Below are positions 45,628-47,833 of a DNA stretch of 64,000 bases, piece after piece. The stretch is from Lentisphaeria bacterium (GTDB lineage: Bacteria > Verrucomicrobiota > Lentisphaeria > Victivallales > Victivallaceae). How positions within the stretch are numbered: position 1 is the stretch's first letter; every line of letters starts with the position of its first letter. The position numbers and the translations under genes were made by a program. The stretch lies in contig CP091727.1 of the NCBI GenBank assembly GCA_022009855.1, positions 3,006,145-3,070,144 of the forward strand. Direction: 5' to 3'. The notes beneath the pieces are model-generated. The model was not told the origin of the DNA. It did no database searches and was given only the letters and a program-made list of their open reading frames with translations.

Positions 45628-46109
45628 TGGATGATCTCTCTCTGCGCGTCAGAGCGGAAGAACAAAGAAAAAAGCAGATGTCATGTTGAAACAACGGACC
45701 GAAGATATGTCAAAATGGAGGTGGACATGAGAAGAAGATTGTTTACTTTAATAGAACTTTTAGTAGTTATTGCGATCATCGCCATTTTGGCCGCGATGCT
45801 GCTGCCGGCGTTGAACCGGGCGCGGGAGTCGGCGCGGCAGGCCAATTGCCTGAGCAACATGAAGCAGATCGGGGTCATTGACCAGAGCTATGCGCAGGAT
45901 AACAATGATTATCTGACTCCGGCGATCTATATACGGGATGGAGAAGAAAGTATTGTTAAAACCTGGTATCGCAACAACTATCTCCCGGTCGGGAACTTCA
46001 AGATCGTGCGTTGTCCCTCCACACAGCAGTTCGAAATTCGAGGTGCCGGCCAGAGCTGGACTGCGATCAACGGAGATGGTATGATAAATAGCTGACGTTC
46101 GCGGTTTCT

Positions 46110-46320
46110 GCTTGCGGCGTGTAATTTATGGCGATTAACTTACACGTATGGAAGCGGACAGGTTGCAGACTGAATATTTATTTGAGGCGCCTCCGAGAAG
46201 AGGATGACCCCGGAAAGGAGATTAGTCAGATCTGCAAACCAGAGCGCCACCGTAGAGAGCGATGTTAATTCGACTACTCTGTATAGGAGGATGGTGAGGC
46301 CGTGACAGCAGTTCCGCTTC
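46110..46320 (+). ncRNA. Predicted IS110 bridge RNA
   Basis: Stems 46118-24/46140-46, 46151-58/46313-20, 46161-73/46226-40; loop segments match target and donor. Confidence 0.7.
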
Positions 46321-46349
46321 GATTCGTGAAAAACGAATGGAGGCTGACG

Positions 46350-47368
46350 ATGATGACAAGTTTTGTGGGAGTGGATTTGCACCGGAACAACTTCACGTAT
46401 TGTATCCGGGAAAACGGCGAGGAGAAGAAAATCGGCAAGTGCGAAATCAGTGAGTTGAAAGGTTTTGCTTCACTGCTCGGAAAGGATACTGCCATGGCGG
46501 TGGAAGCGACCGGCAACACATTTATGTTTTGCCGGTTCCTGAAAGCTCATGTGGGACGGCTCGTCGTAGTAAATCCCTCACAGTTCAAAGTGATCAGCAC
46601 GTCCACGAAAAAGACGGACAAGCATGACGCGAAAATATTGGCGGAGTTTCTGGAAAAGGATATGCTTCCGGAGGTAAGAATGAAAGACGATTTACAAGCG
46701 AAGATTTCAAGTTTGACGCAGACCAGGGAAAAGCTGGTTCAGTTGCGTACCGTCTTGAAAAACAAAGTCAATAATCTGCTGGCTGCCAATTTCATCGTTT
46801 TGAAGCGGGAGGAGTTGTCCACGGAGACCGGGCTTCGGAAAGCTTTGAGCTTTCACTTTGACCCAATCACCGATACGGAACTGTTCGTGGTCGTCGAACA
46901 AATTCGCAGCTTGAATCAAAGCATTGAAAAATTGGATAAGACGATTGAGGATCATGGCAGTAAGATGGACGGCTTCAAGAATCTGAAATCCATTAAAGGA
47001 ATCGGTTCGAAAGGGGCGGCAACTCTGCTCTCGACAATCGGCAATATCCATGACTTCCGTTCTTCGAAACAGCTTGCGGCTTATATCGGAATCGTCCCGA
47101 GAGTAAGTAATTCAAATGATACGGTCTGTCATGGACGAATCACGAAGAACGGCAGCAAAATTGCACGAACCACATTGGTTCAATGTGCGCTGATCGCAAA
47201 ACGATACAGCCCGTATCTCCATGCCTTTCATGAATCGGTTAAAAGTCGGCGGGGTGGAGCGAAAGCCAATATCGCCTTGGCTCGCAAATTCCTCGATATC
47301 GTGTATCGAACATTAAAAAACAACTGGATGTTTGAGGATTTTACTCAATTCAAACTCGTAAAAATTGA
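46350..47368 (+). CDS. IS110 DEDD recombinase (3' end approximate; ORF track reads through into the pilin remnant)
   Basis: VGVDLH, VEATG, KTDKHDA, SIKGIG, GIVPRVSNS, GRITKNG, ALARK; SD GGAGG. Confidence 0.92.
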
Positions 47369-47833
47369 GTTTTTCCCGGCATCGAAGTGGAATTTTATCA
47401 TAGGAGAATATTATGGACAGACACTGCTGCCGAATCTTTTCGTGCATCCCAATGCCGATTCCTCTAAAATGGAAAAATATGTGACGGACTACAACCTTAT
47501 GGAGATGCCTTTTCCCGAAAGTTACGCGGTTCCGTTCGCCCAGCAGGACTTTTTCAATTGCGGAATACTATTGTCTTGACTCTGGATGGGGCGCAGACAA
47601 GGGGAAGGTGGTCGCCTGGCACGGTATTATGGAAGCTCATGGAACAGACGCGTTTTTGGCATTGAATACCGAATCGCAGGGAAATCATATGGCGCGTTAC
47701 AAATCGGTCCTCTTCGTTGGCGGAAATGCCTCCAAGGTTGCGCTGGTTCCCGAGCGGAGGATGATCAACAAAAAAAGAGTTCTGGGGAACGAAAGGCGAT
47801 ATTTGATTTTAATCGGATACGGATGAGGTTTTT

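Follow-up and report, generated by a model that had tools for sequence, protein, structure and literature searches.

How does an IS110-type element come to sit precisely on a GGAGA motif inside a prepilin-like gene, and does its long left end carry an RNA that would lead it there? The element lies in a 64,000-nt window of a Lentisphaeria bacterium (contig CP091727.1), the whole stretch of DNA that was analysed, to which all positions refer. The original prediction, made from the letters alone, had proposed an IS110 element whose left end encodes a bridge RNA matching its own target and donor. This proposal was supported by protein domains, precise insertion, covariation in the fold, covariation between guide and target and complementarity to the donor. 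We put the probability at about 0.85 that this is an IS110 element at a Shine-Dalgarno-like GGAGA and that its left-end RNA is a bridge RNA, as predicted, with loops pairing the target and the joined ends.

A precise insertion at a GGAGA core

A sequence check located every string named in the original prediction: GGAGA at 46072–76 and 47403–07, TGGTATGAT, the repeats and the four loop strings. The element interrupts a prepilin-like gene, the 3′ part of which restarts at 47408 (Table 1), and in an uninterrupted orthologue from a same-genus genome (G002) the frame is continuous across the site. The predicted empty site, ATCAAC-GGAGA-ATATTATG, was recovered exactly in that genome, where it reads ...GCGATCAACGGAGAATATTATGGACAG, and contigs from 2 public RNA runs join 46071 directly to 47403, leaving out 1,331 bases; the joint has 5 ambiguous letters. 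The empty site has a single GGAGA; in the 9 full copies of this genome the motif flanks the element on either side, with a one-base variant at one end in two of them (L005 and L009). The copies, the empty site and the RNA-run contigs all indicated precise insertion without target duplication.

The 9 full copies and 1 split copy in this genome shared the common pattern ...GGAGA-TGGTATGATAAA ... TTTATCATA-GGAGA..., and within GGAGA the placement of the element boundary is free by up to 5 nt. From the sequence we infer a crossover within this core; junction variants place it between the first G and the following A/G. The core AG named in the original prediction is tentative. At the right end, the ribosome-binding motif is reformed before the next ATG, with AGGAG rebuilt.

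Table 1. Features of the inserted element and its predicted left-end RNA (window coordinates).
Feature	Position	Strand	Basis
Host gene, 5′ part, with prepilin-type N-terminal methylation motif and DUF1559	45631..46071	+	Pfam PF07963, PF07596
Left copy of the common GGAGA, Shine-Dalgarno-like target core	46072..46076	+	Ends of the copies, RNA-run contigs
Inserted element, 1,331 bp	46077..47407	+	Empty site in G002; RNA-run contigs; 9 full near-identical copies in the genome
TG-extended −10 TGGTATGAT, predicted promoter of the left-end RNA	46077..46085	+	Consensus scan, 9/12 matches with TG
Left subterminal inverted repeat TATGATAAA	46080..46088	+	Sequence; kept in relatives
5′ hairpin, stem CGTGTAA / TTACACG, loop including TTTATGGCGATTAAC	46118..46146	+	Minimum free energy fold; kept in close relatives
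Closing stem, 5′ strand AAGCGGA, pairing with 46313–46319	46152..46158	+	RNAalifold: 7 pairs, 3 changed on both sides
Target-binding stem-loop (predicted)	46163..46237	+	Conserved helices 1 and 2 in relatives
Target stem-loop parts: outer stem; 5′ side; inner hairpin; 3′ side	46163–73 / 46226–37; 46174–83; 46184–211; 46212–25	+	
Target loop, 5′ side ATATTTATTT, overlapping the proposed right-target guide at 46173–79	46174..46183	+	Sequence
Target loop, 3′ side GGAAAGGAGATTAG, same sense as left target and core	46212..46225	+	Junction consensus; covariation
Donor-binding stem-loop (predicted)	46248..46296	+	Conserved helices 3 and 4 in relatives
Donor stem-loop parts: outer stem CACCGT / ATGGTG; inner stem; one-sided 10-nt bulge	46248–53 / 46291–96; 46254–61 / 46271–80; 46281–90	+	
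ACCGT, complement of ATGGT at 46076–80 (donor right side), one G-T wobble	46249..46253	+	Cross-clade co-change
Donor bulge GTATAGGAGG; ATAGGAG in the same sense as right-end terminus and core	46281..46290	+	Alignment; sequence
Closing stem, 3′ strand TCCGCTT	46313..46319	+	RNAalifold
DEDD transposase gene	46350..47367	+	Pfam
Right subterminal inverted repeat TTTATCATA	47394..47402	+	Sequence
Right GGAGA, then right target ATATTATG	47403..47415	+	Sequence, copies, empty site in G002

An IS110-family transposase

The transposase carried DEDD_Tnp_IS110 (PF01548, E = 5.3e-18) followed by Transposase_20 (PF02371, E = 5.7e-23), both above the gathering scores, supporting the assignment of the element as an IS110-family insertion sequence. 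It matched the IS621 recombinase (PDB 8wt6) at E = 5e-13, mostly over the C-terminal domain, and the alignment placed the Ser of ...PRVSNS... opposite that of ...RRYESGS in IS621. Alignment with the IS5075 transposase spanned residues 4–282 at 27% identity. In a tree with only 7 reference rows, long branches and unresolved deep forks, the transposases of the clade formed one branch (SH-aLRT 95), apart from IS5075+IS5708+ISShdy1, ISAtu7, ISBth13 and ISEc21. The A run at 47359 is one letter short in the gene copy at 46350, which carries its frame out of the element and on to 47579. The extra A was present in all 4 RNA-run contigs and in 7 of the 9 copies, 6 of which end ...FKLVKN-stop; one copy (L002) is also without a T at 47365.

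A conserved fold in the left end

The left end measures ~273 nt and the canonical right end past the stop codon ~40 nt. The predicted left-end RNA, ~230 nt in length, would span 46092–46320, upstream of the transposase. The minimum free energy of the left end was −91.9 kcal/mol compared with −74.3 ± 4.7 for 200 shuffles (z = −3.7). The 5′ hairpin and two looped stems proposed earlier folded as described and were backed by compensatory changes in relatives. Among 11 relatives, 96.2% of cells were paired and 11 of 29 pairs had a compensatory change, a level reached by 0/500 shuffles, and slid controls were 34–41% paired. When distant relatives were included (38 rows), 91.9% remained paired compared with 30–42% in slid controls, and compensatory change was found in 27 of the 29 pairs. 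Rfam 15 returned no bridge-RNA family match in 45800–47700, with two chance-level hits only.

Transcription of this RNA would start from the TG-extended −10 at the left terminus. Because the −10 lies wholly within the left end, a joined right end would supply only the −35 (TGGAAT, 47388–93, with a 17-nt spacer). The original prediction had described an extended −10 within the circle junction; the −10 itself was recovered by the consensus scan, while the junction is deduced from the two ends. The joint between right and left ends was not among the contigs of 4 RNA runs, an observation made on contigs only that carries no weight either way.

Predicted donor guides match the joined ends

The circle junction inferred from the two ends would read TTTATCATA-GGAGA-TGGTATGATAAA. 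ATAGGAG in the donor bulge (46283–89) matched TTTATCATAGGAG at 47394–406, and its proposed role as the guide for the left side of the donor agreed with its conservation: it was unchanged in 35 of 38 aligned rows, the 3 exceptions being a cut, a truncated and a spurious hit. ATGGT, at the start of the left end, finds its complement in the 5′ strand of the loop-2 stem, where ACCGT had been assigned to the right side of the donor. This pairing was borne out across relatives, with 130 of 140 positions paired and 0/5,000 shuffles as high. Donor and RNA changed together across clades, as ATGGT/ACCRU, GAATG/CAUUC, GCATG/CAUGC and GTATG/CGUGC. One further locus (L011), with the right end CATGGGAGG and an unchanged donor loop, was rejected as a covariation case and classed as a 5′-truncated relic.

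The predicted target guide covaries with the left target

On its 3′ side, the target loop reads in the same sense as the left target and core, so that pairing of this stretch with the bottom strand is predicted. The stretch contains AAAGGAGA, the consensus of 11 left junctions in this genome; AAAGGAG (46214–20), the left-target guide of the original prediction, corresponds to the target consensus (A)AAGGAG at these junctions. Guide-target covariation, which the original prediction had named as the check, was found across 28 related elements, in which the guide changes with the target. At position −1 before GGAG, guide and target matched in 27 of 28 elements. All 28 matched at position −2, including all 7 with a non-A guide, and 21 of 25 matched at position −3, including 8 of 12 with a non-A guide; at position −4 the match fell to 5/24. 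With positions −3 and −2 pooled, 49 of 53 matched, whereas shuffles averaged 26.1 and reached at most 37 (0/10,000 as high), a significance that is overstated, as are those of the other shuffle tests, because the related sequences are not independent. Three multi-copy families gave guide and target as UACAGGAG and TACAGGAG (10 copies), CAAAGGAG and AAAGGAG (9 copies), and UUAAGGAG and TAAGGAG (6 copies). Natural variation upstream of AGGAG was confined to two or three positions. AGGAG was invariant in both loops across the clade, so the reprogrammability of those positions remains conjecture.

Insertion upstream of start codons

Judged from the junctions, the element targets the Shine-Dalgarno sequences of host genes, a point absent from the original prediction. 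Nearly every readable junction, in this genome and in related elements, lies 4–11 nt upstream of an ATG, with the element co-oriented with the gene. An ATG at this distance followed 10 of 10 own right junctions compared with 256 of 1,286 (19.9%) unoccupied AAGGAGA sites. The same was found at 9/9 junctions of relatives, 19/19 in other genomes of the genus (2 ambiguous), 15/15, 10/10 and 8/9 in three distant families, and 6/6 in a fourth.

It is quite possible, at somewhat less than even odds, that only a short AGGAG-type motif is recognised, and that the bias toward gene starts comes from later selection against intragenic insertions together with AT-rich, meltable flanks. The low frequency of a nearby ATG at unoccupied sites compared with occupied ones is in line with this account, as is the A+T content of the spacers, which was 80% at occupied sites, 64% at ATG-linked sites and 54% at all sites. 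The gene holding the sole intragenic copy, the element at 46077..47407, likewise has numerous family paralogues (the genome has 218 first-look candidates). At 8 of 10 own sites, T stands directly before ATG, compared with 13.8% among 1,661 gene starts (p = 4.5e-6). Such a bias exceeds A+T content in specificity, but in the other genomes of the genus it held for only 6 of 19 sites. Recognition of a short motif followed by selection is compatible with RNA guidance of the left target half, and competes with the bridge RNA reading for the right half only.

Counting against the bridge RNA reading, the ATG-adjacent excess could stem from the loss of gene-breaking insertions and not from recognition.

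The right half of the target

For the right target half, the original prediction had proposed AATATTT (46173–79) as the guide. This role found no support: with the best ungapped pairing between the 5′ side of loop 1 and the right flanks as the measure, best runs averaged 5.4 over the 10 occupied sites, compared with 5.35 over 256 AAGGAGA+ATG sites that are unoccupied (P = 0.50). Since the 5′ side of the target loop pairs with right flanks no better than background, only half of a canonical target loop is demonstrated. The full earlier model, in which loop 1 has two working guides, AAUAUUU for the top strand right of the core and AAAGGAG for the left half, is unlikely. AAUAUUU does pair with GAATATT in the copy at 46077..47407, with one G-U, and the corresponding position in distant relatives has CAU and a U-rich run, suited to pairing with an A-rich spacer and ATG. 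However, the other 9 own sites showed neither a conserved right flank nor an excess of pairing, and the distance from GGAG to ATG varied from 5 to 9 nt across own sites. A further argument against the full model is that CAU and AAU may be structural, since AUG and AUU on the target loop's 3′ side can serve as their pairing partners.

Screening k-mers of the right flanks for matches to the RNA (454 tests) returned TTATG at 5 of 10 flanks compared with a 3.7% background, in the same sense as 46126–30 in the loop of the 5′ hairpin, and GATTA and AGATT at 3 of 10 flanks compared with 0.8%, in the same sense as 46219–24 just past GGAG in loop 1. TTATG recurred at 2 of 4 extra sites taken from RNA-run contigs; of the 19 sites in the genus's other genomes, just 2 had it. 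All three survived Bonferroni correction narrowly and were not relied on as flank signals.

A very improbable alternative is that the AGGAG stretches are protein-binding repeats or translation signals, with the transposase itself reading the target and the left end acting as a regulatory 5′ UTR of transposase synthesis: AGGAG is present in both loops, at both ends and in the transposase ribosome-binding site (GGAGG, 46340–44), which a hairpin at 46321–45 can sequester, and loop 1 lacks target pairing above background on its 5′ side, but the loop-1 positions just upstream of AGGAG covary with the left target against an unchanging donor loop, stem pairing is kept by the compensatory changes given above, and the transposase is a homologue of the IS621 recombinase, known to be RNA-guided (PMC11208160).

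Comparison with known IS110-family systems

The bridge RNA reading was compared with published accounts of three systems. The element resembles IS621 and ISCro4 (PDB 8wt6, 9t56) as described in PMC11208160 in its recombinase with DEDD and Tnp domains and absence of target duplication, in a non-coding RNA in a long left end upstream of the gene, in the order of 5′ hairpin, target loop and donor loop with guides overlapping a common core, and in a left-end −10 and right-end −35 joined in the circle, the last of which is a prediction here. It differs from IS621 in that the protein similarity is distant, the donor loop is a one-sided 10-nt bulge with the second guide buried in a helix, the subterminal repeats are 9 bp compared with 2–3 bp there (10 bp in a distant clade related to the present element), and the natural target is a Shine-Dalgarno sequence compared with REP-type repeats (PMC11208160). 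Guide order differs as well: in IS621, each loop's 5′ side base-pairs to the bottom strand, its 3′ side to the top strand (PMC11208160), whereas the bottom-strand, same-sense guides were found here on the 3′ side of both loops.

This order is that of the IS1111 seekRNAs, in which the complement of the top strand comes first; in the IS110-type ISEc21, the order is reversed (PMC11187229). The original prediction was correct in combining a left-end RNA with IS1111-like subterminal repeats, and the 5′/3′ order of the guides adds a further IS1111 trait, the reverse of IS621. The order was seen in full in the donor loop, and in the target loop for the 3′ (bottom-strand) guide only. In the account of ISEc11, ISKpn4, ISPa11 and IS4321/IS5075, the IS1111 group shares with the present element subterminal repeats (7–17 bp in that group), a top-strand complement located 5′ of the bottom-strand match in the RNA and a transposase of ~340 aa (PMC11187229). 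In contrast, that group encodes its RNA in a long right end downstream of the transposase (PMC11187229), compared with upstream in a long left end here, and the transposase tree did not place the clade inside the IS5075 group.

IS900 of Mycobacterium avium subsp. paratuberculosis, also of the IS110 family, has the published motif CATGNNNNNNTCTCCTT, the reverse complement of AAGGAGA-N6-CATG, and thus the same ribosome-binding site and start codon, a comparison made by the published motif alone (PMC8141618). Its ORF hed lies on the strand opposite the transposase, without its own ribosome-binding site and start codon (PMC8141618), a layout which suggests that IS900 is antisense to its target gene. 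The element here runs in the direction of the gene and lacks any long antisense ORF, the longest being 114 aa.

Discussion

In the proposed mechanism, the left-end RNA would bind the transposase and act as a bridge, one loop pairing with the target and the other with the joined ends of an element that exits as a circle; recombination would then cross over inside GGAG. Because this RNA spells both a ribosome-binding site and the joined ends, we predict RNA-steered landing just upstream of gene starts. A guide equal to the ribosome-binding consensus would direct the element between Shine-Dalgarno sequence and start codon, always in gene orientation. The right end restores AGGAG at the original spacing, so that the downstream gene keeps a ribosome-binding site and would receive read-through transcription.

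The kind of system is known; its layout is a variant, with an IS110-like position of the RNA and IS1111-like guide order and repeats. Members of the clade were found in Lentisphaeria, Spirochaetia, Syntrophales, other MAGs and one alphaproteobacterial plasmid. We tentatively suggest that this widespread clade represents a third architecture of RNA-guided IS110 elements, having an upstream RNA, IS1111 guide order with long repeats and a Shine-Dalgarno guide, which colonises translation starts genome-wide while rebuilding the ribosome-binding site, and which may link the IS110 and IS1111 layouts.

Bridge and seek RNAs are under development as programmable recombinases, so natural variants reveal which parts of the design can change. 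The clade indicates that the recombination site can take the inverse polarity with respect to the genes for the RNA and the transposase, that a donor guide can hide within a helix, and that ~7 nt (NNAGGAG) on one side may suffice for natural targeting. It also offers an explanation at the RNA level for a long-known habit of the IS110 family, insertion between ribosome-binding site and start codon, as documented for IS900 (PMC8141618). Because the host gene retains a ribosome-binding site, a mobile element of this kind can spread with little harm.

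Insertion at Shine-Dalgarno sequences

The bases preceding the shared GGAGA at the eleven left junctions of the host genome were A (10/11), A (10/11) and A (8/11), and an ATG followed 5–9 nt past GGAG at all ten readable right junctions, with the element always oriented like this downstream ATG. For comparison, only 256 of 1,286 unoccupied AAGGAGA sites in the same genome (19.9%) had an ATG 4–11 nt downstream. The ATG was likewise present downstream of 9/9 relatives from Lentisphaeria and Victivallales MAGs, and at 19/19 junctions, with 2 ambiguous, in other genomes of the genus (20 loci inspected, one lacking an anchor). 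The rule also held in four further genomes whose elements were merely 32–37% identical in protein: a Spirochaetia genome (15/15), Oceanispirochaeta (10/10), Syntrophales (8/9) and Marispirochaeta (6/6). The window's own site, the intragenic AACGGAGAATATTATG, is a mere look-alike of a ribosome-binding site and start codon, and thus an exception that fits the rule. Because the right end terminates in ATAGGAG, each insertion restores AGGAG at its original distance from the ATG.

At the left end (46072–46095), the host's original Shine-Dalgarno (SD) sequence now faces a four-codon mini-ORF (GGAGATGGT-ATG ATA AAT AGC TGA), so that the joined element ends themselves resemble a ribosome-binding site and start codon. 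In the distant family on the Spirochaetia chromosome OY776510.1 (L075, L078–L091), the left flank of many targets is (C)TTTTTATAGGAG, identical to the right-end terminus of the element itself, and is often preceded by a terminator-like hairpin; either these sites are nearer to the donor than to UUUAGGAG, the target guide, or the element's right end imitates a typical upstream sequence.

Empty site, transposase and copies

In G002, a genome from the same genus, the uninterrupted orthologous gene reads ...GCGATCAACGGAGAATATTATGGACAG..., exactly the empty site deduced in the original prediction, and in two public gut metatranscriptome runs contigs contained the same joint, from 46071 to 47403, with 1,331 bases skipped and 5 ambiguous letters. 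The empty site and these joints together define a 1,331-bp element inserted without duplication at the GGAGA common to target and donor. The flanking ORF contains DUF1559 as well as a prepilin N-methylation motif; the gene that is interrupted is one of a very large family of prepilin-type DUF1559 paralogues, with 218 first-look candidates in the host genome and hundreds across the genus.

The transposase contained DEDD_Tnp_IS110 (5.3e-18) and Transposase_20 (5.7e-23) domains and matched the IS621 recombinase structure 8wt6 (E = 5e-13), chiefly in the C-terminal domain, with the Ser of ...PRVSNS... aligned to the Ser of IS621 ...RRYESGS.... The host genome, a single 5.08-Mb contig, harbored nine full copies including that of the window, one copy split by another IS, one 5′-truncated copy at 96%, and fragments; all junctions had the form ...GGAGA-TGGTATGATAAA ... 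TTTATCATA-GGAGA.... The nine copies differed internally at only 9 places, 8 indels of 1–2 bases, mostly within short single-base runs, and 1 substitution. An extra A in the run at 47359, making six A in place of five within 47355–47368, was found in 7/9 genomic copies and in all four metatranscriptome-run contigs, and closed the transposase frame (...FKLVKN-stop) in six of the seven copies having it; L002 carried the extra A but also lacked one T at 47365. The window's copy, like L005, has five A, and without the sixth its transposase stop is lost and the ORF seems to leave the element and run into the host gene to 47579, reflecting either a true frameshift or an assembly error in the homopolymer. 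The split copy (L013 1680–1710 and L010 1–1510; G000:C1:3588374-3590015) is interrupted in its donor loop by a second IS of ~1.63 kb that contains a fragment of a DDE_Tnp_1 transposase (PF01609, 1.7e-10); the 12-bp direct repeat ATTCGACTACTC flanks this insert on both sides.

Conserved structure of the left-end RNA

The left end (46090–46350) folded at −91.9 kcal/mol compared to −74.3 ± 4.7 for shuffled sequences (z = −3.7), and an alignment of 11 relatives resolved four structural elements. In these relatives, a hand-specified 29-pair structure had 96.2% of cells paired, with changes on both sides in 11/29 pairs, whereas 0/500 shuffles scored as high and slid controls reached 34–41%. A covariance model derived from these aligned relatives matched over its full length, upstream of the transposase, in 34/39 sources searched, including the distant clade, and found no match at the loci of IS5075, IS5708, ISEc21, ISShdy1, ISBth13 and ISAtu7. 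In the 38-row model alignment, which was fitted to the covariance model and is therefore biased in its favor, 91.9% of cells were paired and 27/29 pairs showed compensatory change (slid controls, 30–42%). A relative with 49.7% protein identity on the conjugative alphaproteobacterial Tardibacter plasmid NZ_CP018225.1 (L107, 520–1741) had the same upstream RNA (35.4 bits), with target guide GUGAAGGAGC and donor bulge GGAUAGGAGU.

In the interval from the RNA to the transposase start, a hairpin (ATTCGT / ACGAAT) is lengthened by CTTC, which pairs with GGAG in the ribosome-binding site of the transposase itself. Since the RNA's closing stem uses this CTTC too, the two folds may be in competition, and the hairpin could act as a translational switch.

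Features of the element and its left-end RNA in window coordinates
Feature	Position	Sequence	Basis
Interrupted ORF	45631-46095
5′ hairpin	46118-46		alignment + RNAalifold
5′ hairpin loop	46125-46139	TTTATGGCGATTAAC
TTATG and GATTA in 5′ hairpin loop	46126-37
Closing stem	46152-58 with 46313-19		alignment + RNAalifold
Target stem-loop (loop 1)	46163-237		alignment + RNAalifold
Loop 1, 5′ side	46173-79	AATATTT
Loop 1, 3′ side	46212-25	GGAAAGGAGATTAG
Left-target guide	46214-20	AAAGGAG
GATTA in loop 1	46220-24
Donor stem-loop (loop 2)	46248-96		alignment + RNAalifold
Donor outer stem, 5′ strand	46248-53	CACCGT
Donor guide in outer stem	46249-53	ACCGT
Donor bulge (one-sided, 10 nt)	46281-90	GTATAGGAGG
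Donor guide in bulge	46283-89	ATAGGAG
Hairpin before transposase	46321-46349
Transposase ORF	46350-47361

Predicted guides compared with target and donor

The 3′ side of the target loop contains AAAGGAGA, a same-sense copy of the target consensus, which would pair with the bottom strand. We compared guide and site in 28 related elements having a readable left junction, leaving out L096 and L029 (model latched onto the donor loop), L076 (internal deletion), L033 (same family as L030), one spurious minus-strand match and five loci whose available DNA contains no junction. Guide equaled site in 27/28 cases at position −1, in 28/28 at −2, including all 7 non-A guides, in 21/25 at −3, with 8/12 non-A guides, and in 5/24 at −4. 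Positions −3 and −2 combined matched in 49/53 cases; shuffles averaged 26.1, peaked at 37 and in 0/10,000 runs reached the observed value, a generous figure because related sequences are not independent. The same relation was seen in multi-copy families within single genomes. AAAGGAG, proposed originally as the left-target guide, is supported.

Both proposed donor guides were supported as well. ATAGGAG equals the right-end terminus and was constant in the donor bulge of 35/38 aligned rows, the other three being one cut, one truncated and one spurious match. The donor outer stem has a 5′ strand complementary to ATGGT, the first bases of the left end past GGAG, and this complement, which includes ACCGT, shifted along with the donor between clades (GAATG/CAUUC, GCATG/CAUGC, GTATG/CGUGC); 130/140 positions paired compared to a shuffled mean of 107.7, with 0/5,000 shuffles reaching this value, although the 3′ strand of the stem repeats the donor sequence, which makes RNA-stem covariation inseparable from donor matching here. 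The fourth guide, AATATTT, proposed for the right target, was not supported: it pairs with the right flank of the window's copy, but right flanks elsewhere were unrelated, and best pairing runs averaged 5.4 where the element sits and 5.35 across 256 comparable sites without it (P = 0.50).

Crossover point and right-flank signal

The left junction of the L005 copy is AGAGA and its right junction GGAGA, placing the first G left of the crossover. The fifth position was A at every left junction, and G, C or T besides A at right junctions (non-A in L009, many junctions in other genomes of the genus and loose ends of metatranscriptome contigs), which puts it right of the crossover. In L019, whose own loop-1 guide is UAAGGGGA, the left junction is GGAGA but the right one GGGGA, indicating that the third position derives from the target. 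From these junction sequences, the crossover would thus fall around G2–A3; a dinucleotide core GA or AG (CT on the other strand, as proposed originally) is possible if a mismatched core is tolerated.

Past GGAG, A+T content was 80% at occupied sites compared to 64% at ATG-linked sites. In the host genome, T directly preceded the ATG at 8/10 sites versus 13.8% of 1,661 SD-plus-ATG-plus-ORF sites (p = 4.5e-6), and ATT-ATG occurred at 4/10 versus 1.3%; ATTATG was also found at 2/4 further sites from loose ends of metatranscriptome-run contigs, and T before ATG at only 6/19 sites in other genomes of the genus. Two enriched words, TTATG and GATTA, appear in the same sense inside the 5′ hairpin loop, and GATTA additionally just past GGAG in loop 1. 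In the distant clade the corresponding stretch is AAUGA, and sites favor AATG (9/15 and 8/10). This signal may represent a second determinant close to the start codon, loosely spaced and at variable distance from GGAG. The 5′ hairpin loop shares TTATGG with 4/10 of the element's own target right flanks, 11/12 letters with the L008 flank and TATGGCG with that of L019, reflecting either chance or a third recognition element.

Relation to known systems

According to Siddiquee et al. (PMC11187229), IS1111-family seekRNAs have a guide order opposite to that of IS621, and the IS110-type ISEc21 has an IS621-like order. In the present element the bottom-strand guides occupy the 3′ side in each of the two loops and the top-strand donor guide occupies the 5′ side, which is the IS1111 order. 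Its 9-bp subterminal repeats are also IS1111-like (7–17 bp in IS1111 and 2–3 bp in the IS110 group, according to PMC11208160), whereas the RNA upstream of the transposase and the long left end follow the IS110-group layout. Protein comparisons have not settled the assignment to either group: the transposase matched ISEc21 with E = 0.14 and was about 27% identical to IS5075 and IS4321 over residues 4–282, and in a quick 36-row tree the SD-targeting clade formed one branch (SH-aLRT 95), with long reference branches and deep forks left open.

For IS900 of the IS110 family, PMC8141618 gives the target motif CATGNNNNNNTCTCCTT and an ORF antisense to the transposase that is without an RBS and start codon of its own. 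The motif is the reverse complement of AAGGAGA-N6-CATG, indicating that insertion between ribosome-binding site and start codon is a known habit; from this published description, IS900 would lie antisense to its target gene, whereas the present clade lies in the sense orientation. A literature search for IS110, Shine-Dalgarno and insertion site found the term only for a riboswitch, and the text searched (figures and bioRxiv supplements lay outside its scope) described no bridge or seek RNA programmed with an SD sequence; Durrant's Extended Data Fig. 10c or a 2026 bridge-RNA diversity preprint (10.64898/2026.10.21.760802) may already show such layouts.

Taken together, the finding is real, and the original prediction was essentially right, with three of its four guides supported. 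Function as a programmable recombinase is predicted. RNA-guided IS110-family elements aimed at ribosome-binding sites form a broad, coherent clade to which this element belongs, and the clade mixes an IS110-type RNA position with IS1111-type guide order and repeats.
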